From positions 512,001 to 576,000 of the forward strand of contig OY776510.1 of assembly GCA_963675665.1 (NCBI GenBank): a DNA stretch of 64,000 bases. The letters run 5' to 3'. Source of the DNA: Spirochaetia bacterium (GTDB lineage: Bacteria; Spirochaetota; Spirochaetia; UBA9216). The notes beneath the pieces were generated by a model. It had not been told where the DNA came from, made no database searches, and saw nothing but the letters and a program-made list of their open reading frames with translations. Numbering within the stretch: the stretch's first letter is position 1; every line of letters starts with the position of its first letter. A program made the translations under genes and the position numbers. Shown in pieces: positions 29,700 through 50,117 of the stretch.

Positions 29700-29701
29700 G
29701 T

Positions 29702-30837: not shown

Positions 30838-30845
30838 CCCTGGAA

Positions 30846-31211
30846 TCATTTTAGCAGCACCCATACTGCTCCGCTGCCGCCGTCTTTACGGTCGGCAGTA
30901 CCGAATTCCCCTGCTATGGGACTTTTTTCCAGCAATTTCAGCACCTCTATTTTTAGAACGGGCTTTCCGGCAGAATGGTGACCCTTACCGTGAATTATCA
31001 GTACCTTTTTGAGTCCGGCCCGTTTCGACTGAAGAAGGAAATTTTCAACTTCGGTCTCAGTTTCTTCAACGGTTAATCCGTGCAGATCGAGGCTTTGTTG
31101 TACAGGCATGCGAATAAGCTTTTTTCGGCCGACAGGATTTGGTTTTTCATTGCCCGGCTTTTTATCCTTGTCCTGAGGCGGATATTTATTCAACCATTCC
31201 TCCATTCCCAT
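30846..31211 (-). CDS. Smr/MutS2 domain protein
   Basis: LDLHGLT, IIHGKG and GGSGA motifs. Confidence 0.9.
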   Translation of the reverse strand: MGMEEWLNKYPPQDKDKKPGNEKPNPVGRKKLIRMPVQQSLDLHGLTVEETETEVENFLLQSKRAGLKKVLIIHGKGHHSAGKPVLKIEVLKLLEKSPIAGEFGTADRKDGGSGAVWVLLK

Positions 31212-31213
31212 AA

Positions 31214-33202
31214 CTAGTACTCTCCGGATGCAGGTCTGTCCGGATTCACATTAGCCTCCTCAGCCCAGCCCTTGACTCCCAGCCCTGTCTCGATAAGCAG
31301 AAAATTTTCAGATTCATCCAGAATCCGTACTGCAGTGCCCTCCTGTATATCCATCCAGATTTCCGCGGATGCCCTGGGAATCTTTTTTAATTCGCTTCCG
31401 CCGGAACAGACTATTCCGGTCATCCGGGAACGGGACTTGTCGGAAAAGAACATCATGAATGAAGAAGACAGTATTAAAAATGCCGACAGAATAACAAGTA
31501 CCGAGAGACCCCCGCCCTGCCTTATCCTTTTAAAAAATACGGCGAGAAAAAAAACATTGAAGGCGCATATCAGAATAAAATAGAAGATGTCCGGATGAAG
31601 CCGAATCGAAGGGTCAACCGGGTTAATAAAACCATTCCGGTTTTCTATCCAGTTCAGCATATCCCTGTATTCAACGTTAACCGGATCAAGATATACTGCA
31701 GTTCTCAGATTATGAAGACTTTCAGTAAACTCTCCATTATTATAATCTTCTACGGCCTGATTGTAGAAAAAGGTCGGACTGTTTGCAGAATCATCAGAAA
31801 ATTCACTTATATTTAAAACAAAACGGCCTATTGAAAGAATCAATACTATAATAATAACCGTCAGAAGAGCGGCGGCGGCCGGCCGTTTACCCTTCAACAG
31901 AAGATTAAGAATAAAGAATACCGCACCGGGCAGCAGCCACACATACATATAATATTTTCGATAATAATTTTTCCATCCGTCATTTTTCCCGGCAAGTATT
32001 TCCTTCTTTTCAAAAGGGAAATTTTCTTTTATTGATACATTTGTTTCAGCAGGCACTTCGTTAACTTCCACGGTAAATCTGTTACCGGCTTCCGTTATTA
32101 TTGTGCCTGTCTCTTTATCAAAATAATCAAATTCCGGGACACCTATACTGACTCCGCCGGTATTATCCGCTCTGTATACCCATTGAATTGTTTTGACTCC
32201 GGAAAACCCTGCTTTACTTTGACTGTATCCATTAATTTCATCAGAAGAAACAAGCAGACAGCCTTCTGTTTCAGGAACCGGCATCTTCAGATAATTCAGA
32301 TTTCCGTCTCCTTCAACCGTACATGTCAACAGAATTTCTCCGCCGGCATCAACTGCAGCCCGGTCTATGCTGCAGCTGAATTTGAATTTCCCGACCGCTC
32401 CGCTTTTCAGCTCCGAAGGCAGCTTCTTCACATTAAGAAGAAGGTCTTCGGCCCAGCCTGTTATCCCTTCAAAATCAACTCCGGCAGCAGGGATCTTGAC
32501 CCTGCCGGCAACAGGCGAAGTATAAATATAGACGGCGGCGGGGACATCATAAAGAACGATATCCCCTTCGGTTGCTGAGGTAATATCTCCCAAACCGCCG
32601 GCTTCTTCAAAAAAACCGTCGCGCGGATACGCGACGCGTATTTTATCAAAAAGAGTAACTATTTCCTGTCGTTTTACAGTAAGATAAAGAGGTATTGCTT
32701 CTCCGGCATAAATATCATCAAACCCTGCCTGCCATTCTACTTCCAGCGGCATATAAAGCTGTCTGTTTTTATATAATCCGACCTTGAGAAGTACAGGAGA
32801 CGTAACCAGCCGCCTTGAATCTGCAATAACGGAAAGGGAAGGTATTATCAGCCGTCCGGATTTTCGGGCTTTAAAAGTTGTTGTTATTCTGACCTTTCTG
32901 ACGGATTCACCTTCTTTACTGTTTTCAATAAAACTTCTGATATAAGGCCCGCGCCATAACTGAAGCCAGTCGGGTTGTTCCTTCAAGGGAAAATCAACCT
33001 CTGTTGAATTATTATGATTTACAACAATTGTCATTGTGAAAAGATCGCCGAGGCCGACCGGGTTTGGGGCAATCCCGATGCTTTCTATCGTGGGTTGAAT
33101 TGAACTGAATACTTCCAGCTTCTTCTCTTCAGCCTGCAGCAACGCAACAGCCGACAGCAGAAGGAAAGAAACTGTCAGACATTTAAAGATTTTGGCTGTC
33201 AC
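31214..33202 (-). CDS. BatD-like protein fused to a BatE-like TPR/SH3 region
   Basis: Signal peptide, GAVGKF and VEGDGNL BatD repeats, then TPR, TMs and an SH3-like EGTAVRIL...KGW. bat context. Confidence 0.72.
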   Translation of the reverse strand: MTAKIFKCLTVSFLLLSAVALLQAEEKKLEVFSSIQPTIESIGIAPNPVGLGDLFTMTIVVNHNNSTEVDFPLKEQPDWLQLWRGPYIRSFIENSKEGESVRKVRITTTFKARKSGRLIIPSLSVIADSRRLVTSPVLLKVGLYKNRQLYMPLEVEWQAGFDDIYAGEAIPLYLTVKRQEIVTLFDKIRVAYPRDGFFEEAGGLGDITSATEGDIVLYDVPAAVYIYTSPVAGRVKIPAAGVDFEGITGWAEDLLLNVKKLPSELKSGAVGKFKFSCSIDRAAVDAGGEILLTCTVEGDGNLNYLKMPVPETEGCLLVSSDEINGYSQSKAGFSGVKTIQWVYRADNTGGVSIGVPEFDYFDKETGTIITEAGNRFTVEVNEVPAETNVSIKENFPFEKKEILAGKNDGWKNYYRKYYMYVWLLPGAVFFILNLLLKGKRPAAAALLTVIIIVLILSIGRFVLNISEFSDDSANSPTFFYNQAVEDYNNGEFTESLHNLRTAVYLDPVNVEYRDMLNWIENRNGFINPVDPSIRLHPDIFYFILICAFNVFFLAVFFKRIRQGGGLSVLVILSAFLILSSSFMMFFSDKSRSRMTGIVCSGGSELKKIPRASAEIWMDIQEGTAVRILDESENFLLIETGLGVKGWAEEANVNPDRPASGEY

Positions 33203-33792
33203 CAGTCATTCTCCGTTGTCTCTATATTTTCTTCCCCGTTAGCTCTCCAGATACCGGCATCTTTTTTTCTTATAAACTCAAGTATCCGCTGTATTTCATC
33301 AGGAACCTCTTTCTTTTCGGACGCCTGTGCTCCGGCAGCAGAACCTTCAACCGCATTTGATCCGGCATTCATACGTCTCAGGCTGTATTCCAGATTTATC
33401 TTGGCATTCATGCTTTCCGGCTTTATCTGAAGCGCTTTTTTGAAAGATTCAAACGCATCCTGGTATTTGCCGGTTTCAAAATCAAGAACACCTTTATTAT
33501 ACATTGTCCTGAAAAGCAGTTCCGGGTTGCCGGAAAACGCGGCATTCTTCCATTCTCCGGCTGCAGCTTCACCTTCTCCGAGAGCATAATAAACATTTGC
33601 AAGATTATAGCTGATGTAATCAGTATGCACATTTTTTTTCATTGCTTCCAGATATTCAGTATTGGCAGTCTGATAATCTCCGCTGACAAAAGAATTGTTT
33701 CCGACCCAAACCGACAGATATGCGGACGGATTCGAACAGGAAGCGATCAGAATTACCGATGAGGCTATTATGGTTAAAAATATCTTTTCCAT
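33199..33792 (-). CDS. BatC-like TPR protein
   Basis: YNLANVYY, YNKG and AKINLE motifs, ends in DW. Confidence 0.75.
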   Translation of the reverse strand: MEKIFLTIIASSVILIASCSNPSAYLSVWVGNNSFVSGDYQTANTEYLEAMKKNVHTDYISYNLANVYYALGEGEAAAGEWKNAAFSGNPELLFRTMYNKGVLDFETGKYQDAFESFKKALQIKPESMNAKINLEYSLRRMNAGSNAVEGSAAGAQASEKKEVPDEIQRILEFIRKKDAGIWRANGEENIETTENDW

Positions 33793-34757
33793 TTTACAAC
33801 CTTTACATATTTGGCAGTTAAAAGACCCAGCAGTGCTATAATGAGAAAAAACCGGTAATTTTCCTTTACAACAATTTTATATCCGCTGCTTTTTTCGTCT
33901 ACAGTTCCTGATGCAATTCTGATCAAATCAGGCAACATGGCGCTGTCGTCAACCGGGAAGTATTTTCCGCCTGTGGCTGCCGCAACAGTTTTCAAAGACT
34001 GCTCGTCCAGACGGGAAATCACAATACTTCCCGATGAATCCGTAAGCGACGAGCCGTCCGCTGTAGGGATTTCCGCGCCCTCTGAGGTTCCTGCACCAAT
34101 GCAGAATATTGATACTTCGTTATCCGCTGCCAGGGCAAGAACAGGGTCAAGTTCTCCGCTTAATGCTTCACCGTCGGTAATAAGAATAATGTACTTCTTT
34201 CTTTCCTCAACTTCCGAAAAGGCTGAAAGAGCCGTTGAAATACCTGCCTCAAGATTACTCCCCGGAACAGTCAGAAGATCGGTTCCCAGAAATTCAAGAA
34301 AACTGTATATTGATTCGAGGTCCTCGGTAGACGGTATCATTTTAACACCCTTGCCTTTAAAAACAACAATACCGAACCTTCCTCCGGGCGTATTTTCACA
34401 AACTGAACGTATTATTTTCGCCGCGGAATCAAGCCGTGACGGGGTGATATCACGCGCTTTCATGCTCTCTGAAATATCAACTGCAAAAACAATGTCCGTT
34501 CCCGCCGGCTCATAGCTGACTGGATATTCCTTTCCGGGAAATCCCGAGAGCGCCAAAACGGCAAAAACAATAAATACAAGCAATCCGAGCGATGAAAAAA
34601 AGTTTTTGACCATATACAGATCGTAAAAATTGTCGGGACGCCAGTTGCCTGCGGTATGAACAAGACTGTTTCGCCCGGTACGGTAATTTCTTATCATAAC
34701 AATCAGAACCGGTACGAGAAAGGCAAACAGCCTGAAAAACTCGGGTCGTAAAGGCAT
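33774..34757 (-). CDS. batB: BatB-like VWA protein
   Basis: DISESM MIDAS, PSRL and ITDGE motifs. Confidence 0.8.
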   Translation of the reverse strand: MPLRPEFFRLFAFLVPVLIVMIRNYRTGRNSLVHTAGNWRPDNFYDLYMVKNFFSSLGLLVFIVFAVLALSGFPGKEYPVSYEPAGTDIVFAVDISESMKARDITPSRLDSAAKIIRSVCENTPGGRFGIVVFKGKGVKMIPSTEDLESIYSFLEFLGTDLLTVPGSNLEAGISTALSAFSEVEERKKYIILITDGEALSGELDPVLALAADNEVSIFCIGAGTSEGAEIPTADGSSLTDSSGSIVISRLDEQSLKTVAAATGGKYFPVDDSAMLPDLIRIASGTVDEKSSGYKIVVKENYRFFLIIALLGLLTAKYVKVVKWKRYF

Positions 34758-35759
34758 CTAAAATACCTCCCGAAACAGAAGTTTTTTTAGAAAGAAATCA
34801 GCAAGGATCAGTATAATCGACAGAAGGATAAACTGCCGGTACATCGGCGTCAGACTTGTTTTTATCTTTATCCTTCTTTCTGTACTTTCAAGTGAATCAA
34901 TGGCCTCCATAACGCCGCTCAGGGCATTAAATGAAGAGGCATAAAAGTATTTCCCGTCTGTTTTTTCCGAAATTTCAAGAAGCAGTTCCTCGTCGAAATC
35001 ACTGAGAAACTGACCGGTTATTATCTTGCCGGAATCAGGATCCGTATATTCTATCGGAACTTCACCCTTCGAACCTATTCCTATCGTATAAATTCTTATG
35101 CCCATTCCGGCTGCTATATCCGCCGCTGATTCCGGAACAATTTCTCCCGCATTATTCTCTCCGTCGGTTATGAGTACTATTACCTTCTCCTCCGCCGTCG
35201 AGTCCTGAAGATGAAGCGCCGCTATTGCAATTCCCAGCCCTACCGCTGTTCCGTTTCCAAGCTCCATCAGCCTGAGGCTTTCCAGCTCTTTCAGAAAACC
35301 GTTTTTATCAAGGGTCGGAGGAATCCGAAGCGCTGCTTCCTCTGCAAAGGTAACAAGCCCTACGGGATCATTTTCACGGGTCGAAACAAACTTGCTGATA
35401 ACCTCCTTTGCCGCCTCAAAGCGGTTAACAGGAGTAAAATCCATAGCAGCCATACTCGGCGATTCGTCCAGAACAAAAACAATATCGATTCCGCGCGACA
35501 GGTATATTTTTTCTTTTTTCACGGAGGAAGGCCCGGCCAACGCCAGAATTACACAAATAACCCCTATCCAGAACGCAAAATTTGAAATAAATAAAACCAG
35601 GCGGATAAAGTGGTTTTTGGGTGTAAATCTACTGCTGTTCCACAGCCCGGTGGAAGCGGGGACAACTCCCCCGCGGCCTTTGTACAGATGAGTAAAATAA
35701 ACCGAGGGAATAATCAGTGTAAGCAGCAGCAGCAAAGCCGGACGTTCAAATATCCACAT
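34758..35759 (-). CDS. batA: BatA-like VWA protein
   Basis: DESPSM, GTAVGLG, TDGENNAG and IYTIGIG motifs. Confidence 0.85.
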   Translation of the reverse strand: MWIFERPALLLLLTLIIPSVYFTHLYKGRGGVVPASTGLWNSSRFTPKNHFIRLVLFISNFAFWIGVICVILALAGPSSVKKEKIYLSRGIDIVFVLDESPSMAAMDFTPVNRFEAAKEVISKFVSTRENDPVGLVTFAEEAALRIPPTLDKNGFLKELESLRLMELGNGTAVGLGIAIAALHLQDSTAEEKVIVLITDGENNAGEIVPESAADIAAGMGIRIYTIGIGSKGEVPIEYTDPDSGKIITGQFLSDFDEELLLEISEKTDGKYFYASSFNALSGVMEAIDSLESTERRIKIKTSLTPMYRQFILLSIILILADFFLKKLLFREVF

Positions 35760-36639
35760 GTTCCACACCTCCGGCATCAGCTTTTTCTATCTCGTCTGCT
35801 GTGCTTCGAACAGCTTCAATATCTTCCTCACGCCGGCGGATCATCACCCTCCGGCCCCCGAACCTGACCTCATCGGAAAGCTTGAAAACATTAATCAGGT
35901 TCCCGCTGCCGGAGACCTTCCCGAAGTCGGAAGCTATCATGCGGGCGCCTTCACGCGCAGTTGCTGCTGAATAATCAATACTTCCCCGGGCCGTAAGATA
36001 TATTCTGAGCTCGCTTACAAGCAGGGAATAAAACTCATTGCCCTTTTTATCGTTTACAGTCTCTTCAAGTTCATTCAGAACCTTCAGAAGCCGCCGGTAA
36101 GGTTTCTTTCTCCGCTGTTCATGAATATATAAGTAAATTGCGTTTTTCAGCTTCGCCCAGAAAAAGATGAAGAATACGGGAAGCATGAAAACCAGCCCGA
36201 TAATCAACGCTATATAATATACAGTTCCGGGCAGCAGCATCTGTTCCGCCGGAGGAGCAAACGCCGAAGCTTCCTGTTCCAGAACCGATTTCGTCTGTAT
36301 TTTTATGTCCCTCAGAAGCACATCACCGAATTGAAGCGCAGGCAGAGTTCTGATTCCCGGAGCAAACGGCCGTAAAAAAACACGCAGTTCATACTCATCT
36401 TCAAGCTTTGTGACAACAGTATTTTCTATCCTGACCCAGTATGAATCAGGAAAACTTTCAGGCTTTTTTACTTCTGCACCCTTTTCAGGGGTTATCATAA
36501 CGCGCATCTCTACCAGGTCTCCGACATAAAATTCCTGCGGAAGAAATACGACTTTATCGCTGGTATAATTTTTCTCGGCGACAGCGGAAAACGAAAAAAT
36601 AAAAAACAGAACAAAAACCAGAGAACAGACTTTTCTCAC
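35746..36639 (-). CDS. Hypothetical membrane protein of the bat operon
   Basis: Signal peptide plus one TM. Overlaps its neighbours in the operon. Confidence 0.7.
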   Translation of the reverse strand: MRKVCSLVFVLFFIFSFSAVAEKNYTSDKVVFLPQEFYVGDLVEMRVMITPEKGAEVKKPESFPDSYWVRIENTVVTKLEDEYELRVFLRPFAPGIRTLPALQFGDVLLRDIKIQTKSVLEQEASAFAPPAEQMLLPGTVYYIALIIGLVFMLPVFFIFFWAKLKNAIYLYIHEQRRKKPYRRLLKVLNELEETVNDKKGNEFYSLLVSELRIYLTARGSIDYSAATAREGARMIASDFGKVSGSGNLINVFKLSDEVRFGGRRVMIRRREEDIEAVRSTADEIEKADAGGVEHVDI

Positions 36640-37508
36640 CTTCCCTTTCTCCTCCTGAAAAAGGAAAGCAGGGCTTTCGCAGGATCATCCTCGGTATCAA
36701 TTACAATCGTATCAATTCCGCGCCGCCGGCATTCACGCTGCCAGAAGATATGTTCCGTATGCCAGAAGTCCCTGTATTCCTTTCTGTACCTGGAAGAAAA
36801 ACCGAAAGAAGATGTTATTCTGCCGGATTCTGCATCCTGAAGCTCAAGAAGCCCCGTAGGGGGTATCTTTCTATCTGACGGGTCGGTCACCTTTACTGCT
36901 ATCAGATCGTGCTTTCGTCCCAGCATCGACATCTGCCTGTAGGCCGGTTTGATCCTGAAATCAGAAACAATAGTACAGATTCCCCGGCGCTTCATCGACT
37001 GCTCAACACATGCAATAGCCAGTGAAAGATCAGATCCACGGCCTTTCGGTTCAAGCGATGCCATATCCTGCACCAGTCTCATCAGGTGGTTACGTCCTTT
37101 CATTGGGGGTACCCATTTCTCAATCCGGTCGGAAAAAAATACCGCCCCTACCCTGTCGTTATTATGAACCGCCGAATGCGCAAGAAGTGCTGCCACAATA
37201 GCGGCAGTGTCCGCTTTTCGGTAGGTACCGCTTCCAATCTGAAGAGAGGCTGAAACATCTATCATCAGAAGCAGCGCCATTTCCCTTTCCTCACGGAAAG
37301 TCTTAACATAGGGAGAACCCATCCGGGAAGTAACGTTCCAGTCTATGGCCCTGATATCGTCGCCTTCCGAATATTCACGGACTTCGTCAAATTCCAGTCC
37401 GGGACCGCGGAAAACCGTCCGATAGTTTCCGGATAAAAAACCTTCCACAAGCCGCGATGATACAAGGGGTATATTACGTATTCTGGAAAGCAGCTGAAGA
37501 CTATCCAT
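36636..37508 (-). CDS. DUF58 domain protein
   Basis: GLEFDEVREY-GDDIRAIDWNVT and DVSAS motifs. Confidence 0.9.
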   Translation of the reverse strand: MDSLQLLSRIRNIPLVSSRLVEGFLSGNYRTVFRGPGLEFDEVREYSEGDDIRAIDWNVTSRMGSPYVKTFREEREMALLLMIDVSASLQIGSGTYRKADTAAIVAALLAHSAVHNNDRVGAVFFSDRIEKWVPPMKGRNHLMRLVQDMASLEPKGRGSDLSLAIACVEQSMKRRGICTIVSDFRIKPAYRQMSMLGRKHDLIAVKVTDPSDRKIPPTGLLELQDAESGRITSSFGFSSRYRKEYRDFWHTEHIFWQRECRRRGIDTIVIDTEDDPAKALLSFFRRRKGR

Positions 37509-38488
37509 TATGGAACCGGAATTATTTTCAGTATTCGATCTATTACATCGTCAGTTGTCAATTCTTCGGATTCGGCCTCATAAGAAAGCACGATTCTGTG
37601 ACGCATTACATCATGAACAACCGTTTTAACATCATCAGGTATTACATAGCTTCGGCCTTCAAACAAAGCCTGAATTTTTGCGCAGCGGTATAAATAAATG
37701 CTGGCCCTCGGAGAAGCGCCGAATTCGATGTATTTTGCGTAAGGCACTACTATCTTGTCCTGTTCACGGGTAGCCGCGGTTATTGATACAATATATTTTT
37801 CTATTCTCTCGTCTATTCTGATTTTCTCGGCCGTCCTGCGCAGATCCTTCAGCGCAGTAGGAGTCAAGGCTTTCTTTACCGAAATATTTCCTTCAATCCC
37901 CATACGCCTGAGAATCTCAAGCTCTTCATCCGGCGACGGATATTCTATTTTCAGTTTAAGAATAAACCGGTCAAGCTGGGCTTCGGGAAGAGGGTATGTT
38001 CCTTCGCTCTCTATCGGGTTCTGTGTAGCCAGGACAAAAAACGGATCAGGAAGATTGTGAGTCTGGCTACCGATTGTCACCTGGCGTTCCTGCATGGCCT
38101 CAAGCAGCGCCGACTGAACCTTTGCGGGAGCGCGGTTAATTTCATCGGCAAGAACGATATTTGCAAAAACCGGCCCTTTTCTGACGACGAATTCGCCGCC
38201 CTGCTGCTTGTAAATCATTGTACCGACAATATCCGCCGGAAGTAAATCCGGTGTAAACTGTATTCTCGAAAAAGTTGCGTCGATTACCTCCGACGCGGTC
38301 TTTACCGAAAGGGTTTTCGCAAGGCCCGGTACACCTTCAATCAGAACATGTCCGCCTGCGAGAAGGCCCATAAGAATGCCGTCCACCATAGATTTCTGTC
38401 CGATTACCCGCGCCGCTATCTCTTTTCTGCACTTATCCAGCTGTGCATGCGCTTTTTCAATAAGTTCGTCTATATTTTCGTTTGCCAT
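37508..38488 (-). CDS. moxR: MoxR AAA+ ATPase
   Basis: GVPGLAKT, RIQFTPDLLP, DEINRAPAKVQ and GASPRA motifs. Confidence 0.93.
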   Translation of the reverse strand: MANENIDELIEKAHAQLDKCRKEIAARVIGQKSMVDGILMGLLAGGHVLIEGVPGLAKTLSVKTASEVIDATFSRIQFTPDLLPADIVGTMIYKQQGGEFVVRKGPVFANIVLADEINRAPAKVQSALLEAMQERQVTIGSQTHNLPDPFFVLATQNPIESEGTYPLPEAQLDRFILKLKIEYPSPDEELEILRRMGIEGNISVKKALTPTALKDLRRTAEKIRIDERIEKYIVSITAATREQDKIVVPYAKYIEFGASPRASIYLYRCAKIQALFEGRSYVIPDDVKTVVHDVMRHRIVLSYEAESEELTTDDVIDRILKIIPVP

Positions 38489-42031: not shown

Positions 42032-43135
42032 TCATGCGACTTCTGTTCTACCTACCATCATTCCCCAAATAAATCCTGATAATTCTCTGGCAACTGCCGT
42101 AACAGTTTTCTGAGGGCATACCCCTCTACGAATCATCCTGAAATATTTCTTACTCAACCTTCTGCCGGCTTTATCAGCATAAGCTATTGTTTCAGCAGAT
42201 TGTCCTTTCCTTCTCGCTGTCAGTCGTTTCGATGGCGAATACCTTTGGTAATGCCAGCTTGATTCCACTAACAGCCGTCGTAGCCTGGAGTTGCCGGCCT
42301 TCGTAATCCCGCCAAGCTTCCGGCCCTCTCCGCTTGAGTATTCTGACGGCACAAGTCCAAGATACGCCATGAAGGATTCCGCTTTTTTAAATCTTCTGAA
42401 ATCTCCTATCTCGCATACAAATGTTAATGCTGTTAATGTCTCTATACCTTTGAAACATCGAAGCCGGGATACCCTTTCTTTATATCTGTCTTCAGCAGCA
42501 ATCTCTTCTATTTTTTCCTGCAACCGTTCAATCTTTTCCTCTAATTCCACAATCGCAAGATAATATTCTTTTAAAACTTCTTTATGCATTACCTGTTCAA
42601 ACTGCAAGTTTTTCAACCAGGTTCGATGCGCCCCTGTCCAGTACTTTTTCCCAATATCATATTTCTTCCCGTTCCTTAGCAGAAACTGTAAGAGCCTCTG
42701 TTTCTGTTTCCTCAAATCAATTTTCATATCGTTACACATCCTCATGTAATCACGAACTGATTCATCTGTGCGTGTCGGTATATTCACCGGTGTTATTTCC
42801 TGATTCCTTAATGCTCTGGCTAATTTGACTGCATCCCTCTTGTCTGTCTTTATTCGGTCTCCGGGTTTCCTCGGCAATAATGATGGTGCTGCTACGTAAC
42901 AGATAATTCCCATATCTTCAAGTAATCTATAAAGTGTAAATCCTGTAGGGCCTGCTTCGTAACAACACAGAATATTTTCTCCATTCTCTTTAAGTCGCTT
43001 GAAGAATCTTTTAATATTTCCGGGTTCGTTCCTGAGCTCTCTTTCAAACTCAGGATTCTGATAATTATCTCTGAATACCGCTACTGCGATTGATTCCTTG
43101 TGGACATCCATCCCTACATAAATTACACTATTCAT
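42032..43135 (-). CDS. IS110 family recombinase/transposase
   Basis: DEDD domain (VGMDVHK, YEAG, KTDKRDA) and GLVPSEYSSG...ITKAGN. GGAGG RBS. Confidence 0.96.
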   Translation of the reverse strand: MNSVIYVGMDVHKESIAVAVFRDNYQNPEFERELRNEPGNIKRFFKRLKENGENILCCYEAGPTGFTLYRLLEDMGIICYVAAPSLLPRKPGDRIKTDKRDAVKLARALRNQEITPVNIPTRTDESVRDYMRMCNDMKIDLRKQKQRLLQFLLRNGKKYDIGKKYWTGAHRTWLKNLQFEQVMHKEVLKEYYLAIVELEEKIERLQEKIEEIAAEDRYKERVSRLRCFKGIETLTALTFVCEIGDFRRFKKAESFMAYLGLVPSEYSSGEGRKLGGITKAGNSRLRRLLVESSWHYQRYSPSKRLTARRKGQSAETIAYADKAGRRLSKKYFRMIRRGVCPQKTVTAVARELSGFIWGMMVGRTEVA

Positions 43136-43236
43136 AGTGGCCTCCGTTCCTTTGTATGTGGCGTGTCTGCGCTTTGCCATTAGCCATTGTGTAGGCTAAT
43201 CCACGATTTTGCAAACACGGCGGTCACTTCATATTG

Positions 43237-43314: not shown

Positions 43315-45084
43315 ATGTTGTGCGAAATATGTGAATTTGAATGTGATATTCCTGAAAAAGGTACCGGAAAATGCGGAATGTATGAAATAAGAAATGGAGT
43401 CATACAGGAGAGATATCCTGATATGTATCTTATTTCAGTACCCGCCCCAATTGAAGCAATGCCTTTGCTGCATTATTATCCTAATACAAAATTCCTGCAG
43501 GTATGTACTATCGGTTGTAATTTCCGTTGCACCGGATGCGTTTCGTGGCTGTTAACGGAAAATGCCGAATCCATTGATGGAGTAATTGAGACAATAAGTC
43601 CTGATCAACTTATAAAGAAAGCTCTTGATCAGGGATGCTCCGGAATAATGTTCTGCTTTAATGAACCGGCGGTTTCCTTCTTCACTTTTAAGAGAACGGC
43701 AAAACTTGCAAGAGAAAAAGGCCTTTTCACAGGATGCGCTACAAACGGTTATTTTACGGAAAAATCTTTCGTGGAGCTTCTTGAGTATATTGATTTCATT
43801 AACATCGGGTTAAAAGGACATTCGGATAAAGCTTATAGAATTCACGGGGCCTTATCATATAAGCCCATATACCGGAACCTTGAGCTCAGTATAAAAAGCA
43901 AAGTTCATACCGAGGTTTCCCTGGTATATATAAAGGGAATGGAAGATGAAGTCATTGAAACAGTAAAACATATTGCTTCCATATCAAAAGAGACTCCTGT
44001 ACAGCTTATGCGATTTCTGCCCCTTTGCGACACTGATTATGATGACGAGCCTTCAATTAAAGAAGCAGAAATACTTTGTGACGAATTAAGGAAACTACTT
44101 GATTTTGTGTATCTGTTTAATTCCCCCGGCACCGAGTATCTAAACAGTGATTGTCTCCGTTGCGGCAAGCCGGTAATAAGAAGGGGGTTCAACGGCCCCA
44201 TGAACTCAAACGTGACTGAGACCCGGGAAGAAGCGATCTGTGAATGCGGTTACGGCCTGCCGATTAAGGGACAAATCTGCAAGGATAACGGACTGGAGGC
44301 CCTGGGGTTTTCCGGCGGATACAAGAATATAATGGCCCTTGAATTTATTCGGATAATTCTGGCGTTTCTGGGAGAGAACAACAGCAGTACGATAAGCAGG
44401 GTTCTGCTTGAAATAATCAAAACCGATTATATTAAAGACCTGTATTCCAGAATGAAAAAACCGGGAACATATCTCGATACAGTAGATCATTATGCAAGGC
44501 TGGCAGGCAGAGAAAAGGAAGCAGGGAATTTAAGAGCTTTTATTGAAGAAAATGTTGCGGAAATATCTGCTCAGGTTTTAAAAGCAGAAAATCCCCGTGT
44601 ATTTTTTGCTCTTAATCATCCCCTTATAGCTGTTTTCGGGGATAAATTTGACTGCAACCTTGTCGAGATTGCCGGAGGATACAACCTGAACAAGGACATA
44701 AAGCGCGAAGAAATACCGGGAGTGATGATTCCTGTTGAGACGCTAAATAAACTCAACCCCGAAATAATACTGGTATCCGGATCAAACGGGTATCCCGCTT
44801 CGGACGTTTATTCGTTCTATATTGACAAGGGAATGACAGCGGATGCAGTAAAAAACAAAAGAATATACAATGTTCACCCCTATAATACATCGGCTTCCCC
44901 TGACTGGATATTGGGATTAATGTATATTGCCAATATCATTCATCCTGAAATATTCAGTTTCGATCTCGAAAAAACAGCAGATCAGCTTTATCAACAACTT
45001 TTCGGAATCAATTATGATACATTGAACCATAACAGAAGCTTTGACGTATTACGCCTGGAAAGAATAAAAGCGGTACAAAAATAA
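43315..45084 (+). CDS. AmmeMemoRadiSam/PflA-like radical SAM enzyme fused to a periplasmic-binding-protein-like C-terminal domain
   Basis: CEICEFEC...GKCG, GCNFRCTGC, FNEP and TNGY motifs. C-terminal EIAGG...LNPEIIL...AVKNKRIY...ANIIHPEIF. Confidence 0.82.
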   Translation: MLCEICEFECDIPEKGTGKCGMYEIRNGVIQERYPDMYLISVPAPIEAMPLLHYYPNTKFLQVCTIGCNFRCTGCVSWLLTENAESIDGVIETISPDQLIKKALDQGCSGIMFCFNEPAVSFFTFKRTAKLAREKGLFTGCATNGYFTEKSFVELLEYIDFINIGLKGHSDKAYRIHGALSYKPIYRNLELSIKSKVHTEVSLVYIKGMEDEVIETVKHIASISKETPVQLMRFLPLCDTDYDDEPSIKEAEILCDELRKLLDFVYLFNSPGTEYLNSDCLRCGKPVIRRGFNGPMNSNVTETREEAICECGYGLPIKGQICKDNGLEALGFSGGYKNIMALEFIRIILAFLGENNSSTISRVLLEIIKTDYIKDLYSRMKKPGTYLDTVDHYARLAGREKEAGNLRAFIEENVAEISAQVLKAENPRVFFALNHPLIAVFGDKFDCNLVEIAGGYNLNKDIKREEIPGVMIPVETLNKLNPEIILVSGSNGYPASDVYSFYIDKGMTADAVKNKRIYNVHPYNTSASPDWILGLMYIANIIHPEIFSFDLEKTADQLYQQLFGINYDTLNHNRSFDVLRLERIKAVQK

Positions 45085-45097
45085 AAGGAAATCAAGA

Positions 45098-45733
45098 ATG
45101 AAGAAGCAAATGGAAAAATTCAATAAAAAAACAGGCACGGATTTCGACAAGATCTCAAAAACAGTTTTTGCCCCTATATACCCGGTAATTGTCGACCAAT
45201 TGGTAGAACGATGTGAAATCAGCAGGGGAGTTTGCATAGACATCGGAAGCGGAACGGGGCAGCTCGGCATGGCGCTGGCAAAAGCCTACGCTTTTAAGGT
45301 TTACGGCCTTGATTTTTCAGAAGAAATTAACACCATAGCCCTTGAAAATATAAAATCTGAAGGGCTGGAAGGCCGGATGTTGCCGACGTATGGCAGTGTA
45401 GATAAGATTCCTTTCGATGATAATTTTGCGGATATAATAATAAGCCGAGGCTCCCTGTTTTTCTGGAATGATATCGATAAAGCTTTTAAAGAAATTTACA
45501 GGGTATTAAAACCGGGCGGAAAAACATATATTGGCGGCGGCTTCGGAAACGCCGGGCTGCGCGAACAAATTACTGCGGAAATGCGAAAAAAGGATCCCGA
45601 CTGGGAATGCCAGGGCAGCAGGCCGGAGGGGAAAAGCAAGGTGGAAGAATCACGAAAGGCACTGGATAAAATGGATCTGGATTATAAAGTAGTAGATGAT
45701 GAAACCGGTCTGTGGTTTATGATAAGAAAATAA
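45098..45733 (+). CDS. Class I SAM-dependent methyltransferase
   Basis: IDIGSGTG, ISRGSLFFW and IYRVLKPGG motifs. Confidence 0.9.
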   Translation: MKKQMEKFNKKTGTDFDKISKTVFAPIYPVIVDQLVERCEISRGVCIDIGSGTGQLGMALAKAYAFKVYGLDFSEEINTIALENIKSEGLEGRMLPTYGSVDKIPFDDNFADIIISRGSLFFWNDIDKAFKEIYRVLKPGGKTYIGGGFGNAGLREQITAEMRKKDPDWECQGSRPEGKSKVEESRKALDKMDLDYKVVDDETGLWFMIRK

Positions 45734-45739
45734 AACAAT

Positions 45740-46534
45740 TCAGTTCATCAATTTTGGTACACAGAGTTTCAGCTCGCGGTTTGTATCGGGCTCATCCACG
45801 GTCAAAAGACTTACCTCCATATCATAAACCTCAGACAGAGAACTGTCCGTCATCACCTCGGACGGTCTTCCCGTATCAATAAACCGACCGTTTTTCATTA
45901 AAGCAACACGGCTGGAGTAAAGCAGGGCATGATCCGGATAGTGAGAAGTCATCAAGACGGTAATCCCCTGCCGGGCCAGTTGATTAACAATCTGCAGGAT
46001 ATTTGTCTGGTTTTTAAAATCAAGATGTGACGTCGGTTCATCCAGCAGTATTACCTCAGGTTCCTGTGTAAGGGTTCTGGCGATAAGAACCAACTGCCTT
46101 TCTCCTCCGCTGATCTGGGTATATCGATGGTCGCGGTAGTGATACATGCCGACCCTTTCGAGGGCTTCTTCAGCAATTTCAATATCTTCCTGTGAGGGTG
46201 TGGAAAAAAGTTTTAAATGAGGCGCTCTTCCCATAGATACTACATCTATTACTGAGTATGGAAAAGGTGCGCTATGTTCCTGAAAAATATATCCAATCTT
46301 GCGGGCTATTTCAGTTATACTCATACAGGAGATATTGTTACCGTCCAGCATAACTTCACCTGTTTTAAGCTTTAGAGTACCGTTAATACAATTGAGCAAT
46401 GTTGTTTTGCCGCTTCCGTTGGAACCCAAAAGACAGAAGATTTCTCCGGAAGATACGCTCAACTCAAGATTACTGAAAATATTTTTTTCATCATAGCTGA
46501 AAGAGGCATTTTTCAATGCAATTTTAGCTTCCAT
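45740..46534 (-). CDS. Fe-siderophore/cobalamin-type ABC ATPase
   Basis: GSNGSGKTT, ISGGERQ and LDEPTSHLD motifs. Confidence 0.92.
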   Translation of the reverse strand: MEAKIALKNASFSYDEKNIFSNLELSVSSGEIFCLLGSNGSGKTTLLNCINGTLKLKTGEVMLDGNNISCMSITEIARKIGYIFQEHSAPFPYSVIDVVSMGRAPHLKLFSTPSQEDIEIAEEALERVGMYHYRDHRYTQISGGERQLVLIARTLTQEPEVILLDEPTSHLDFKNQTNILQIVNQLARQGITVLMTSHYPDHALLYSSRVALMKNGRFIDTGRPSEVMTDSSLSEVYDMEVSLLTVDEPDTNRELKLCVPKLMN

Positions 46535-46535
46535 T

Positions 46536-47555
46536 TTATCCTGCGCCCCCTTTTGTCTTCCGTAGTATATAGGCAAAATACGGCGCTCCGACAATTGCGG
46601 TCAGTATTCCCAGCGGGATTTCCGCCGCCATCACGGTTCTTGCCAGATCATCAATAAACAGAAGATAAGCGCCGCCGAGAACCAGGGATGCAGGAAGCAG
46701 AACCCGGTGATCCGGCCCAACCAGCATTCGGGCCACATGCGGCATAATCAGCCCTACCCAGCCGATAATGCCGCTGACACATACCGCTGAAGCAGAAACT
46801 ACACTGGAACAGATTATTATAACGCCCTTGATAATTTCTGTATTGATTCCAAGGGCGCGGGCTTCCCTGTCCCCCATCGAAAGGATATTTATCCGCCATC
46901 TTAAAAGTAGAAGTCCGGTTGAACCCAGGAACATCGGCGGGGTTACGGTTATCAAGTCCTTGAAAGAGCTGCCGCTGAGACTTCCCATAAGCCAGAAAAC
47001 AATAGCCGGCAGTTTTTCATGCGGATCAGCAACATATTTTGTAAGTGAAATAAATGCTGAAAAGAGCGCTGTAACAATTGTACCGGCAAGCACCAGCATA
47101 AGCGTTGGGGTAGTTTTATATATACGGCTTACAGAGTATGTAATCGCTACCGCTGCCAGGCCGAACAGCATTGCGAGTCCCTGGATAATAAACCCGCTGC
47201 CGGAAAGCAGGATTCCCAAAGCCGCCCCGAACCCGGCCCCTGCGCAGACACCCAGAATATGGGGACTGACCAGAGGATTCTGGAACATTCCCTGAAAAGA
47301 TGCGCCGCTGATTGAAAGACCTGCTCCTACAAAAAGCGCCAGAATTATCCGCGGCAGGCGGACCTTGAAGATAACTGTTTCTACCGTATCCGCCCAACAG
47401 GGTTCAATAGGGAATATTTTTGAAGCGATAACCTTGATAACCGTCAGAGGAGTTATCGGGTACCGCCCCCAAAAAAGAGAAACAAAAAAAAGAAGCAGGG
47501 GTAATAAAATGAAAAATACTATATTTTTCCTGGACATACAGTTTCTCTGCTTCAC
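46536..47555 (-). CDS. FecCD/BtuC-family ABC permease
   Basis: RLPRI, FQNPLVSP, FWLMGSL and GWVGLIMPH motifs. Confidence 0.92.
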   Translation of the reverse strand: MKQRNCMSRKNIVFFILLPLLLFFVSLFWGRYPITPLTVIKVIASKIFPIEPCWADTVETVIFKVRLPRIILALFVGAGLSISGASFQGMFQNPLVSPHILGVCAGAGFGAALGILLSGSGFIIQGLAMLFGLAAVAITYSVSRIYKTTPTLMLVLAGTIVTALFSAFISLTKYVADPHEKLPAIVFWLMGSLSGSSFKDLITVTPPMFLGSTGLLLLRWRINILSMGDREARALGINTEIIKGVIIICSSVVSASAVCVSGIIGWVGLIMPHVARMLVGPDHRVLLPASLVLGGAYLLFIDDLARTVMAAEIPLGILTAIVGAPYFAYILRKTKGGAG

Positions 47556-48433
47556 CTGACAATCCCGGATGATAAAAATCTTTCCCGCATTCCATCCAGA
47601 CTGTTTTTATTTTTTTCAGCTGAATAAATCGTCGAGAAAAAAGGACTGAAACCGTTAGCTCCCGCCCTGAGCCCCCAGGGAGCAGTATCGGGAGAAACAA
47701 ACAAATCTACATCCGTCATATATATCCTGGTAATAGCGATTATCTTCGACCATTCATAAATATTCGGCGGGGTTATTCTTTCAAGATCGGTATTGGCTCT
47801 CGGCTGAAACATTTGAATCGTAACTGATGATACGCCGAGACTTTTCATCAATTCCAGACCATAAATTATATCATCCTGTGTTTCTCCCAAACCTGTAATA
47901 AAGCTGCTCCAGGTTTTCATTCCCAGATCACGGGCGTTCTTCAGAGTTTCAAGCCTTGCCACAAAATTATCGCCGGGCCTTATCTCCTTAAAAATCTTTA
48001 TATTCGGCATTTCGATACCGCACCAATAACCTTCCATACCGCAGCTTCTCAGCAACTCAAGAGTTTTCCTGCTTAACGGACCAAAGAACCCGTAAACCTC
48101 AAAATTTGCAGTATCTTTTATCAGTTTCAGGTAATCATAAAAATAATCAGGAAGCTCATATCCCATCCATCCCGAAACCATATGTACCCTGTGAATTCCC
48201 TGCTTATTTCCATTCAGAACTCTCTCAATGATGTTTTCTTTTGGATTTATTCTGTTATATTCATCATCCAATGGAGACAGGGATTTCCATGTACAATGCC
48301 GACAGAGCGGTTTGATATTGCAAACGGTTGTAACCGGCATTGGAGAACAGTATACAGTTTCCTTTTTCTCAGCTACTTCTCTTGCCCTTTTAAAAAGAGA
48401 ATCGGCATCTTCTTGAAACAGACTCTTTAGCAT
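47552..48433 (-). CDS. BioB/HcgA-like radical SAM protein with CX5CX2C motif
   Basis: TTVCNIKPLCRHC, GIE...FKEIRPG, ITGLGET and GLRAGAN motifs. Start moved to MLKSL. Confidence 0.8.
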   Translation of the reverse strand: MLKSLFQEDADSLFKRAREVAEKKETVYCSPMPVTTVCNIKPLCRHCTWKSLSPLDDEYNRINPKENIIERVLNGNKQGIHRVHMVSGWMGYELPDYFYDYLKLIKDTANFEVYGFFGPLSRKTLELLRSCGMEGYWCGIEMPNIKIFKEIRPGDNFVARLETLKNARDLGMKTWSSFITGLGETQDDIIYGLELMKSLGVSSVTIQMFQPRANTDLERITPPNIYEWSKIIAITRIYMTDVDLFVSPDTAPWGLRAGANGFSPFFSTIYSAEKNKNSLDGMRERFLSSGIVR

Positions 48434-48469
48434 ATCGTATTCAATCCTTAAAAATTTAACTTTCAAACA

Positions 48470-48502
48470 ACTCACCGGGGTAAGACTGGTTACCCGGTGA
48501 GT
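48470..48502 (-). other. Intercistronic stem-loop after the binding-protein gene
   Basis: ACTCACCGGGGTAA...TTACCCGGTGAGT. Confidence 0.6.
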
Positions 48503-48511
48503 AATCCGTTG

Positions 48512-49648
48512 TTATACTGTTGTTTCCGGCCCCAGGTGCTTCAGGATCCTGTCAGTTTCCTCATCACTGAGTTTGTAATTGTAAAACCTGGAATAGAATT
48601 CCTGTATCTCTTTTTCAATATTTAGATCTTTAAACTTATCCGGGTGAAGAATCTTGGCCATCCACATCACCTCAAGAATCACTTCTGAACCGGCGTCCCA
48701 GAAAAAAGCTCCCATCGGAGTTACATAAATTTCTCCGTTTTTTACAGCGCTTACTTTATCGAACCTGCCGTCTTCCTCGATTAGTGATATAAATGATTCA
48801 AGAGGTGATTCCGAGCTTTCTCCGGAATGCTCCAGAATAATAACTTCGGGATCCCATTTCATGAAATCTTCGTAATTAACATCTGCCGGCCATGTACCGG
48901 GCAGCTCCTTATGAACACAGAGGCCTCCCGCTTTATCTATCAAACTGGGAGTATTTGAATACTTTGTCTGAGCTTTCATCAAAGATCCATGGGCGCAATA
49001 CACCCGGGGCCTTTCACTATTCGGAATCTGTTCGGTAACAGTAGTAATCATTGCCAGTTTCTCATCGAAATAATCACAATATTCCCGGCCGATTTTTATC
49101 TCTGCTTCACCCAGAGTTTCCGCATATACCATAACCTGATCTTTCATATTAGCCAGGTCCTGTACGGCATCTTCCCCGGGATAAACACCAACTACTGATA
49201 TGCCGATGTTCTGCATTTCTTCAACGGCATCGACATTCGTCCAGAAGAAAACAACATCCGGATCAATTTTTAAAAGTTCTTCAACATTTACCTGTTTTGC
49301 TTTCGCGATTGTTGTAGGAACTTCATCTATTCGTGAACACATTACACTCAACCATGGCCAGTAAGTTTTGTGAAATCCCGAACAAAGAACTATCTTGTCC
49401 TCAGCCCCCAGCAGCGCAACCTTTTCATATGCACAGCCGTAAAGGGCTGCAACCCTGTCTACTTCATAGGGGATGGTGAGAATATCACCGTCGAGATTTG
49501 TAACTTCTCTGGTTGTCGGTAACTGCTCTTCCTCTGCCGCCGGAGCTGAAGCCGGGGCTTCTTCTTTGGCACTGCAGCCAAGGATTGTATTTATAATTAG
49601 AACAGATATGATGATTATTAAACATGATTTATTATTTCTTTTAAACAT
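48512..49648 (-). CDS. Fe/B12-type ABC substrate-binding lipoprotein
   Basis: Lipobox ILGC, NVEELLKIDPDVV, AVKNGEIY and MAKILHPDKF. GGAG RBS before MFKRN. Confidence 0.9.
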   Translation of the reverse strand: MFKRNNKSCLIIIISVLIINTILGCSAKEEAPASAPAAEEEQLPTTREVTNLDGDILTIPYEVDRVAALYGCAYEKVALLGAEDKIVLCSGFHKTYWPWLSVMCSRIDEVPTTIAKAKQVNVEELLKIDPDVVFFWTNVDAVEEMQNIGISVVGVYPGEDAVQDLANMKDQVMVYAETLGEAEIKIGREYCDYFDEKLAMITTVTEQIPNSERPRVYCAHGSLMKAQTKYSNTPSLIDKAGGLCVHKELPGTWPADVNYEDFMKWDPEVIILEHSGESSESPLESFISLIEEDGRFDKVSAVKNGEIYVTPMGAFFWDAGSEVILEVMWMAKILHPDKFKDLNIEKEIQEFYSRFYNYKLSDEETDRILKHLGPETTV

Positions 49649-49832
49649 TATCTTCACTCCATAATTTCCTGATATAAAAATAAAAAACATTTCTTTTTCT
49701 GCCTGAGGGTTTTAGATCAACCCACCCTAATCCGTCACCGGAAAAAAATGAGACAGTGAATAAAGAACAGAGACAATTCGATATAATATGGATAAAAAAT
49801 AATGACTAAGAGCTGTCTATATACATTCAGAA

Positions 49833-49928
49833 TCTCCTTTCCAAACACGGGAGGCTATGTCGTTTCCAACAGAACCCTATCGACGCAAGATCCATGGTGT
49901 AACCGGTAGGACGCAAGCGCTCGGAGTT
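49833..49928 (-). ncRNA. Moco RNA motif riboswitch, short P3-less (Tuco-like) form
   Basis: Minus strand ACUCCGAGC...CCUA...AUGG...UAGGGU-UCUGUUG-GAAA-CGACAU-AGCCUCCCGUGUUUGGAAAGGAG matches the hallmark Moco consensus segments as recalled. Confidence 0.85.
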
Positions 49929-49939
49929 ATTACAAATAA

Positions 49940-49968
49940 ATTAAACACGATTTCAACTGATATGTCAA
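49940..49968 (-). promoter_or_regulatory. sigma70 promoter upstream of the riboswitch
   Basis: TTGACA-N17-TTTAAT, placing the start a few nt before the aptamer. Confidence 0.75.
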
Positions 49969-50029: not shown

Positions 50030-50042
50030 ATGTTCACATCAT

Positions 50043-50116
<74 letters not shown>

Positions 50117-50117
50117 G

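Follow-up and report, generated by a model that had tools for sequence, protein, structure and literature searches.

In the stretch of DNA analysed here (64,000 nucleotides; the window), a compact gene block starts on the minus strand with a Moco/Tuco RNA, which is followed by four genes encoding a lipoprotein substrate-binding protein (SBP), a radical SAM enzyme with the motif CX5CX2C, a FecCD permease, and an ATPase. This operon converges with a pair of genes on the plus strand, which encode a fusion of a radical SAM enzyme to an SBP-like domain and a class I methyltransferase, and the gap between the converging stop codons is 6 nt (45734-45739). The block is bordered by an IS110 transposase on one side and a tRNA-Arg on the other. 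All of these elements had been named in an earlier, sequence-only reading, and all were found where it had placed them. The features of the region are:

42032..43180, minus strand: IS110-family transposase (DEDD_Tnp_IS110, 50.4 bits; Transposase_20, 79 bits), a flank outside the system
43315..45084, plus strand: radical SAM protein (AmmeMemoRadiSam/PflA-like, CX3CX2C; Radical_SAM, 50.8 bits) fused to a cytoplasmic SBP-like domain
45098..45733, plus strand: class I SAM-dependent methyltransferase, with orthologues 40-43% identical in the related loci L002, L004, L005, and L006
45740..46534, minus strand: FecE/BtuD-like ABC ATPase (ABC_tran, 111.6 bits); its ATG at 46534 overlaps the permease stop codon, with 46594 as the alternative limit
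46536..47555, minus strand: FecCD-family permease of a type II ABC importer (FecCD, 290.7 bits)
47552..48433, minus strand: radical SAM enzyme of a rare CX5CX2C clade, without BATS domain; the start at 48433 is taken from the family alignment, and the longest open reading frame runs from a GTG at 48475
48512..49648, minus strand: class III lipoprotein SBP (Peripla_BP_2, 78.4 bits)
49649..49817, minus strand: leader of 169 nt between the aptamer and the SBP gene
49818..49938, minus strand: Moco/Tuco riboswitch aptamer (RF01055, P3-less variant), from a covariance-model match
49940..49968, minus strand: promoter-like site (TTGACA, 17 nt, TTTAAT), seen by eye and on weaker evidence than the other elements
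50042..50117, plus strand: tRNA-Arg(CCT), a flank

The GC content over the block is 0.39-0.46 and that of the window 0.44, so that composition is silent on horizontal transfer. The stop codon of the operon's radical SAM gene and the start codon of the permease gene overlap by 4 nt. BatA/B-like genes are also present in the window.

The RNA at the head of the operon, previously proposed to be a Moco riboswitch, passes the Moco model: it matches RF01055 over its full length (model positions 1-135 of 135) with 65.4 bits against a gathering score of 36 (E 1.7e-13). This match and the gene set taken together are far beyond chance. Stem P3 is deleted in the alignment of the window RNA to the model, a form that has been proposed to sense Tuco (PMC2408646). 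The RNAs of the related loci described below are mixed in this respect, with P3 present in 5 and absent in 1, so that stem P3 does not point to one metal for the system overall. The promoter claimed for the operon was upheld in part: TTGACA and TTTAAT are visible by eye and are placed as expected for a transcript beginning just 5' of the P1 core, but a promoter scan did not list the site, as its -10 hexamer lacks an A at position 2, and promoter-like sites are no more common in the region than in shuffled sequences (16 versus 15.1).

No convincing terminator or hairpin sequestering the ribosome-binding site was found in the window leader by sequence scan and folding, and folding of the entire 316-nt leader gave a z-score of 0.09. 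In the related leaders, a hairpin with a U-tract 3' of the aptamer was flagged by a script in 5 of 6 and recognized by eye in the sixth. Judging by these terminators and by the precedent of E. coli moaA (PMC2408646), the riboswitch presumably acts as an OFF switch, so that the operon would be expressed when the pterin cofactor is scarce. A permissive Rfam search detected no RNA element 5' of the fusion gene in the window, leaving the fusion and methyltransferase genes without a riboswitch of their own.

With a 6-sequence alignment as the query, six related loci were found, bringing the total to seven including the window. These span four phyla (Chloroflexota, Bacillota, Actinomycetota, and that of the window), and all come from strict anaerobes. 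The SBP gene lies directly 5' of the radical SAM gene in all seven, and inside a FecCD/ATPase operon in all six related loci. Co-occurrence with Moco RNAs in other anaerobes, put forward by the sequence-only reading, was confirmed: 4 of the 6 related loci carry such RNAs (six further RNAs, all on the operon strand), versus 0 of 18 control loci covering ~277 kb. The combination of Moco RNA, importer, and radical SAM enzyme recurs in other genomes and is absent from the 18 control loci. Both related loci without a Moco RNA are actinobacterial, and a permissive Rfam search 5' of the L005 operon was empty.

An orthologous methyltransferase is encoded in 4 of the 6 related loci, and in L002 (Syntrophomonadaceae) all six genes form a single riboswitch-led operon. 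A Fur-family gene adjoins this locus. The six-gene set envisaged earlier is found complete in L002, but the core is five genes, encoding the SBP, the CX5CX2C radical SAM enzyme, the permease, the ATPase, and the methyltransferase. The radical SAM enzyme is a fixed member of the operon and the methyltransferase its usual partner, while the radical-SAM/SBP fusion is accessory, an occasional partner found in 2 of the 7 loci. L004 additionally contains two DUF364 genes and an FmdE gene. DUF364 is described inside a modABC operon, cofit with nifH, in the available part of a preprint (10.1101/2024.03.05.583561), and beside tungstate and molybdate transport genes in the available part of PMC2954201; nothing was found on DUF364 together with FmdE in the literature searched.

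This gene set is conserved and uncharacterised, and probably supplies molybdenum or tungsten to anaerobes. In these organisms, Mo/W enzymes underlie the metabolism of formate, aldehyde, nitrate, and CO2, and where habitats are anoxic and sulfidic, a large share of both metals is in forms other than the free oxyanion. The established routes of Mo/W uptake are, to our knowledge, oxyanion transporters only.

The transporter is a type II ABC importer of the BtuCD/FecCD class, with a FecCD permease, an ABC ATPase, and a class III extracytoplasmic SBP. The SBP carries a signal peptide with the lipobox ILGC, and a GGAG lies 8 nt 5' of its ATG (by eye). Its sequence matches 4ovk (E 2.6e-29) and MolA (3psa, E 1.1e-11), and its structural model (pLDDT 84.7) is nearest in fold to 4ovk, 4hn9, YiuA, 4pag, MolA, and H. 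pylori CeuE. Among these nearest folds (E 1e-19 to 1e-24) are binders of an oxyanion (MolA), of Ni-(His)2 (H. pylori CeuE), and of a small Fe-catecholate (YiuA), while binders of heme, B12, and large siderophores gave weaker fold matches (E 1e-12 to 1e-14).

MolABC of Haemophilus influenzae (HI1470/71 with MolA HI_1472) is likewise a type II importer with a class III SBP, and MolA is a clear relative of the window SBP in sequence and in fold (fold E 1.1e-19). The locus could accordingly be read as an ordinary MolABC-like importer of molybdate or tungstate, with the radical SAM enzyme and methyltransferase as passengers, for example in Mo/W-enzyme maturation. A weak TOBE-like tail on the L001 ATPase (19.3 bits, below the cut-off of 22.3) would fit such an importer, as would the absence of a radical SAM gene from the Eubacterium limosum operons in the available part of their description (see below). 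We nevertheless consider this reading quite improbable, given that the SBP and radical SAM genes are adjacent in every locus across four phyla, that there are overlapping genes and natural ATPase-radical SAM fusions, and that the 1 to 4 SBP paralogues per locus are unusual for a single oxyanion. In the overall comparison, MolA is 20% identical to the window SBP, and 4ovk, 4hn9, and YiuA rank above it. MolABC is not known to have associated enzymes or a Moco riboswitch, and a literature search on MolA brought up nothing but chemistry papers on other subjects.

YiuA, which binds iron, is as near to the SBP in fold as MolA. Homologues are also annotated as iron transport proteins, and, as had been predicted, public sources label parts of the system as 'biotin synthase' and 'iron complex transport'; these are generic family labels. 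Regulation of this transporter type by Tuco RNAs has in fact been published for E. limosum, so that the description of the system as undescribed stands only in part. According to the available part of that report (PMC11725836), P3-less RF01055 RNAs lie directly 5' of Fe/B12-type SBP, permease, and ATPase genes, as in the window, in two 'Fe ABC' operons, FetABC1 and FetABC2, which were read as iron uptake, and lactate-grown cells had a 12-fold higher iron content. The encoded proteins are ~350-365 aa (SBP), ~345 aa (permease), and ~259 aa (ATPase), and a class I methyltransferase gene lies just 5' of FetA1. Compared with the window by description rather than by sequence, these operons have neither a radical SAM gene nor a fusion protein in the part of the report available. 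An XdhC/CoxI gene follows one Tuco-controlled transporter of this type in its supplement.

The importer could take up iron or an iron chelate, co-regulated with the pterin cofactor and feeding the Fe-S clusters of Mo/W enzymes. The counts in SI Table S4 of PMC11725836 agree with this in showing no rise without W: mean counts were 1223/273/198 with W versus 928/127/110 without for FetABC1, and 903/142/116 versus 874/111/83 for FetABC2. The available main text nevertheless states that FetABC1 is up-regulated under W limitation. The table, the sole published expression data on such operons, shows no clear derepression without tungsten. The Fur-family gene beside L002 may also be counted for iron. 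Against it, the neighbours are XdhC, DUF364, and FmdE rather than iron genes, and the conserved radical SAM enzyme and methyltransferase are given no role. In addition, an aptamer with a terminator is the usual OFF design, with which the iron supply would be cut exactly when the cofactor is plentiful. On balance, we regard iron uptake as improbable.

The radical SAM enzyme of the operon carries the cluster motif CNIKPLCRHC, of which the three cysteines and the proline are invariant in all 14 aligned family members. Its clade is rare, with ~22 clusters among 1.84 billion representatives. The best sequence matches in the PDB are HydE (E 4.4e-14) and BioB (E 1.2e-9), but both have the canonical CX3CX2C and a BATS domain, neither of which is present in the window protein, and it scores below the NCBIfam cut-offs. 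Assignment as biotin synthase was rejected (TIGR00433, 86.5 bits against 225; no BATS match; CX5CX2C instead of CX3CX2C). HydE acts on a metal-cysteine complex. For HmdB/HcgA (TIGR03957), the enzyme reaches 83.8 bits against an equivalog cut-off of 320.9, and the tree puts it in a clade of its own (SH-aLRT 96; HmdB clade 99). The clade is distinct from HmdB/HcgA, BioB, and HydE alike.

HmdB/HcgA-type proteins are nonetheless the best-scoring outgroup (P0169, 559.6 bits against the HmdB cut-off of 320.9). HcgA (HmdB) shares the unusual CX5CX2C, a conserved proline, a BioB/HydE/PylB-like core, and a partner SAM methyltransferase; the operon enzyme is ~50 aa shorter, and its context is an ABC importer instead of a hydrogenase. 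HcgA makes a pyridinol, which HcgC then methylates (available part of PMC10100467). By analogy, the window enzyme might make an N-heterocyclic chelator that is methylated by the methyltransferase, secreted, and returned with Mo or W through the importer. Such synthesis and re-uptake of a metallophore, which we hold to be distinctly unlikely, would account for the presence of both a radical SAM enzyme and a methyltransferase in the window and 5 of the 6 related loci, and chelator synthesis beside such transporters has been proposed (available part of PMC2954201). However, none of the 7 operons contains an exporter gene, and the natural fusion to the importer ATPase suggests that the enzyme acts on what is imported. 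For the methyltransferase, an ordinary member of class I, no kinship to HcgC was seen, and the tree does not place the two CX5CX2C clades as sisters (support 77). No hmd or hcg match was found among the window proteins scanned.

For the methyltransferase itself, ArsM-like arsenite methylation was rejected (57.3 bits against a cut-off of 263). ArsM needs several conserved metalloid-binding cysteines, and only one cysteine, located in the SAM-binding motif, is invariant in six aligned methyltransferases. A corrinoid role was set aside (CpaM, a weak match of 36-50 bits against 180), since the RNA is of the Moco and not the B12 type.

Coenzyme riboswitches (B12, TPP, FMN, THF, preQ1) are often found in control of salvage transporters, and cofactors are among the cargoes of type II importers. 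The B12 riboswitch over BtuFCD, a type II importer with a Peripla_BP_2 binding protein, offers an analogy, with another RNA and another cofactor, and with BtuF-type folds being weaker matches to the window SBP. In parallel to this arrangement and to corrinoid remodelling, the importer could take up preformed Moco/Tuco, molybdopterin, a stable precursor, or a breakdown product present in the anoxic environment, which the radical SAM enzymes and methyltransferase would remodel. The hosts are strict anaerobes, in which a labile cofactor could survive; the SBP-like domain of the fusion resembles the cluster SBPs and could hold a cofactor; and the ATPase-radical SAM fusion is consistent with import-coupled processing. 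Still, we think cofactor salvage unlikely: the SBP is closest in fold to binders of small metal species, not of bulky cofactors, no bacterial Moco importer was found in the literature searched, and no pterin-handling gene occurs in the 7 loci, save possibly DUF364.

We tentatively favour the reading that this conserved module under Moco control acquires Mo or W in complexed form, with processing coupled to import. The importer would bring in the metal in a form other than, or besides, the free oxyanion, either as a small chelate or as one of the thiolated or organically bound species that characterise sulfidic anoxic settings. The radical SAM enzyme, stationed on the cytoplasmic side of the transporter, would transform this cargo on arrival. 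The released ligand or metal would be handled by the methyltransferase and, in loci that have it, by the cytoplasmic SBP-like fusion, and the metal would then enter Moco/Tuco synthesis. The reading draws on the Moco RNAs lying on the operon strand, on the constant place of the radical SAM gene next to the SBP gene and its natural fusion to the ATPase, on the links to Mo/W given by DUF364 and FmdE in L004, by XdhC/CoxI in E. limosum, and by the TOBE-like tail of L001, on the small cargoes of the nearest SBP folds, and on the lack of exporter genes in the 7 operons. Counting against it are the Table S4 counts, the two actinobacterial loci without a Moco RNA, the riboswitch-free fusion and methyltransferase genes of the window, the nearness of YiuA in fold, and the small sample of 7 loci. 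The cluster is a compact, conserved, riboswitch-marked candidate for a non-oxyanion Mo/W route or for pterin-cofactor salvage. It also allows the 'iron' transporters published for the Tuco regulon to be read differently.

A bolder and rather doubtful version is an importer with a built-in radical SAM 'unloader', docked on or fused to the ATPase, which would open a complexed cargo on entry, be it pterin cofactor, preformed or degraded, or Mo/W that is thiolated or organically bound. If true, this would add a third means of acquiring Mo/W or Moco to the Mod/Tup/Wtp oxyanion transporters, and it would be the first ABC importer with radical chemistry coupled to it. Two 555-aa proteins on two contigs are natural ATPase-radical SAM fusions; the window ATPase is matched by their residues 2-261 at 40% identity, and the window radical SAM enzyme by their residues 275-539 at 34%. 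Complex prediction for the separate ATPase and radical SAM enzyme (score 0.00, mark 0.32) counts neither for nor against binding.

No published description of an embedded radical SAM enzyme and methyltransferase with a Moco riboswitch and ABC transporter was found in the literature searched. The cluster provides a first functional context for two uncharacterised enzyme families, the rare CX5CX2C radical SAM clade and the radical-SAM/SBP fusion family. For the fusion, the AmmeMemoRadiSam assignment was rejected (TIGR04337, 105.4 bits against 220; no AMMECR1/Memo partners in the window or L002), and no literature on the protein in methanogens was found in a search by identifier. Its Peripla_BP_2 match is 25.8 bits for the whole protein, just below the cut-off of 27.5, and 28.0 bits for the C-terminal 291 aa alone; this C-terminal part is 30% identical to the SBP of L001 (E 1.6e-13). 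The family has ~855 members in one Atlas cluster, mostly archaeal, and a fusion protein 73% identical to that of the window is present in a Spirochaetes MAG.

All of the elements listed by the sequence-only reading were found in the window by the RNA model and by gene and domain scans. They are listed here from the promoter onwards, followed by the flanking features:

49968..49940, minus strand: promoter motif (TTGACA, 17 nt, TTTAAT), seen by eye
49938..49818, minus strand: Moco RNA (Rfam model RF01055), full length, 65.4 bits (gathering score 36; E 1.7e-13)
48512..49648, minus strand: Peripla_BP_2 substrate-binding protein (SBP) with lipoprotein signal, from the domain scan
47552..48433, minus strand: radical SAM protein, motif CNIKPLCRHC (CX5CX2C), from the domain scan
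46536..47555, minus strand: FecCD permease, its start overlapping the radical SAM stop by 4 nt
45740..46534, minus strand: ABC ATPase, from the domain scan
45098..45733, plus strand: class I methyltransferase
43315..45084, plus strand: fusion protein, 589 aa; radical SAM domain AmmeMemoRadiSam/PflA-like, C-terminal domain SBP-like
42032..43180: IS110-family transposase (flank)
50042..50117: tRNA-Arg(CCT) (flank)

The proposed Moco riboswitch thus passes the Rfam model. The promoter fared less well: its motif is visible by eye, but it was absent from the scan list, and promoter-like sites were not enriched relative to shuffled sequences. The plus-strand pair stops 6 nt from the ATPase stop. About 125 nt past that stop, a minus-strand terminator-like hairpin with a T-run (45596-45614) lies inside the convergent methyltransferase gene, so that a 3' overlap of the two transcription units is possible. 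No further Mo- or W-related gene was detected among the 43 other window proteins scanned. In the source annotation these proteins appear as "biotin synthase" and "iron complex transport system", as had been anticipated, and also as "pyruvate-formate lyase-activating enzyme".

One genome per species was scanned, using as query an alignment of the radical SAM protein's six nearest relatives, and 24 loci were returned. Six of these (L001-L006) hold true clade members (32-48% identity, E 1e-51 or lower), and the 18 remaining loci, with other radical SAM proteins, served as controls. Genomic context thus covers seven loci including the window, most homologs being known only from metagenomes. The related loci are arranged as follows:

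L001, Dehalococcoidales: RNA-led run of 11 genes, with a NifH-like and two NifD/K-like genes at its 3' end
L002, Syntrophomonadaceae: on one strand, RNA, permease, ATPase, SBP, radical SAM, SBP, fusion, methyltransferase
L003, Dehalococcoidales: RNA, SBP, radical SAM, permease, ATPase, in the order of the window
L004, Syntrophomonas: two RNA-led operons, four SBPs, two methyltransferases, two DUF364 genes, FmdE
L005 and L006, Actinomycetota: transporter, radical SAM, divergent methyltransferase, without Moco RNA

The predicted co-occurrence was borne out. In the window and all six related loci, the radical SAM gene lies directly 3' of a lipoprotein SBP gene within a FecCD/ATPase operon, and Moco RNAs at the gathering score are present in four of the six, compared with none of the 18 controls. 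These six RNAs all lie upstream of cluster genes on the operon strand. L002 gathers all six window genes in a single operon and, among the six loci, has the only ortholog of the fusion (40% identity). Orthologs of the window methyltransferase (40-43% identity) occur in four of the six; L003 ends at a contig edge, and L001 has a class I methyltransferase of a different kind. L001 also has a second radical SAM paralog, located 3' of a methyltransferase gene.

Several neighbors of these clusters were also recorded. In L001 (9079-12291), a NifH-like gene (CfbC 337.6 bits, NifH 336 bits, both under cut-off) and two divergent Oxidored_nitro (NifD/K/E-like) genes lie directly 3' of a CX5CX2C radical SAM gene, on the same strand of the riboswitch-led run, and may belong to the same pathway. 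At 5402-5806 in this locus, the C-terminal extension of the transporter ATPase, 394 aa in all, gives a sub-threshold TOBE-domain match (19.3 bits versus 22.3, profile positions 2-62 of 64). Next to the L004 cluster (338-4822) are an FmdE/zinc-finger gene and two genes of the DUF364/DUF4213 type, labeled "putative heavy-metal chelation"; one of the latter shares its operon with genes for an SBP and a methyltransferase. DUF364 has been tied to molybdate and tungstate transport in the portions of two reports available (PMC2954201; preprint 10.1101/2024.03.05.583561). An NrpR-type nitrogen regulator gene is divergent from the riboswitch-led operon of L003 (7331-8407).

In the RF01055 alignment, the columns of the aptamer stem P3 are deleted from the window RNA. 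One L004 RNA also lacks P3, while the five other related-locus RNAs have it, which indicates that the system is not bound to a single metal. Such P3-less RNAs were proposed to sense the tungsten cofactor by Regulski et al. 2008, in the part of that paper available (PMC2408646). The related leaders carry a hairpin followed by a U-tract 3' of the aptamer (five of six flagged by script, the sixth visible by eye); the same examination yielded no convincing terminator in the window leader. L002 has a second Moco RNA (9237-9381), a near-copy of the first with its own terminator. No same-strand ORF of at least 30 aa lies between it and a convergent Fur-family gene (9996-10415, minus strand), making it either an orphan or antisense-acting.

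P3-less RNAs also precede two "Fe ABC" operons of Eubacterium limosum, described in 2024 and read as iron uptake (PMC11725836). These have the same transporter type and RNA form as the window but contain no radical SAM gene. An XdhC/CoxI gene lies 3' of one operon, and a class I methyltransferase gene just upstream of the other. One of them, FetABC1, is said in the text to rise under W limitation, whereas Table S4 lists lower mean counts in the absence of W, a positive fold change there denoting lower expression without W. Iron uptake, which that publication proposes, seems improbable to us for the present clusters, given their Mo/W-linked neighbors.

When 1.84 billion representatives were searched exhaustively with a profile of the radical SAM clade, 37 proteins had an E value of 1e-30 or lower, and about 22 scored above 200 bits. 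CX5CX2C is found in 16 of these 22; four are N-terminally truncated, and two span the region without the full motif. Three cysteines, a proline within the motif and one further cysteine are invariant in a 14-sequence alignment. NCBIfam scores of the window protein fall far under cut-off (BioB 86.5 versus 225, HmdB 83.8 versus 320.9, PylB 66.9 versus 348.2), its closest solved relatives are HydE, BioB and PylB, and the domain scan found no BATS domain in it. Among 27 CX5CX2C representatives scanned from outside the 22, three of which later adjoined the window clade, one is a true HmdB (559.6 bits), seven match HmdB under cut-off, and 19 have no match at 1e-45. A quick maximum-likelihood tree of 115 rows was built from the window protein, seven locus proteins and 107 of 150 listed representatives, leaving out 43 fragments, long fusions or sequences without a recognizable motif. 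It places the window protein in a 22-row clade (SH-aLRT 96), separate from a 25-row clade of HmdB-type proteins (SH-aLRT 99); the sister grouping of these two CX5CX2C clades has a support of only 77.

The motif is shared with HcgA, which, in the part of the source available, makes a pyridinol that is then methylated by HcgC (PMC10100467). By analogy, the cluster could synthesize an HcgA-like chelator that is then taken up again. We consider this unlikely, if slightly less so than iron uptake; no exporter gene was found in the cluster operons of the window and L001-L006. In a search of literature outside subscription journals, no paper was found on the radical SAM protein, methyltransferase or fusion in this context.

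The modeled SBP (pLDDT 84.7) is closest in fold to 4ovk, 4hn9, YiuA, 4pag, MolA and Helicobacter pylori CeuE, binders of heme, B12 and large siderophores being weaker matches. Salvage of the pterin cofactor itself, which the Moco RNAs might suggest, is the most probable of the alternatives, yet still unlikely in view of these small-ligand folds. A plain MolABC-like importer, with the enzymes as passengers, would agree with the MolA match and is the least probable of all. Two 555-aa proteins, from two contigs, are natural fusions of a transporter-type ATPase to the clade's radical SAM protein; together with the fixed place beside the SBP gene, they suggest that the radical SAM enzyme acts on arriving cargo. 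The fusion protein of the window belongs to a family widespread in anaerobes and methanogens, with at least 182 matches, scored among the 7,994 candidates sharing the most words, and an Atlas cluster of 855 members. An ArsM-like methyltransferase was ruled out, since the family has a single invariant cysteine.

The analysis establishes the RNA, the gene set, the conservation of this set and its link to Moco RNAs. As to function, we tentatively favor import of complexed Mo or W with processing at import. A shortage of pterin cofactor would switch the operon on, the importer would take up Mo or W, and the radical SAM enzyme may transform the cargo on arrival, in which case the cargo would be more elaborate than an oxyanion alone. 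The absence of exporter genes, the SBP folds and the Mo/W-linked neighbors weakly favor this reading. Against it stand the E. limosum expression data, which are equivocal, and the two loci that lack a riboswitch.

Elsewhere in the window, an inositol catabolism set (IolM, IolO-like, IolN, IolG) with a sugar ABC transporter was found at 729-8717, and a 511-aa radical SAM protein with weak NirJ2/AhbD-like matches at 18164-19699. BatA/BatB-like VWA proteins are encoded in a long minus-strand gene run (28575-38488), along with several proteins without an NCBIfam match at E 1e-20 or lower. Finally, an unrelated control locus from Acididesulfobacillus (L007:13597-13696) contains a PYLIS_3 element, the mttB pyrrolysine insertion sequence.
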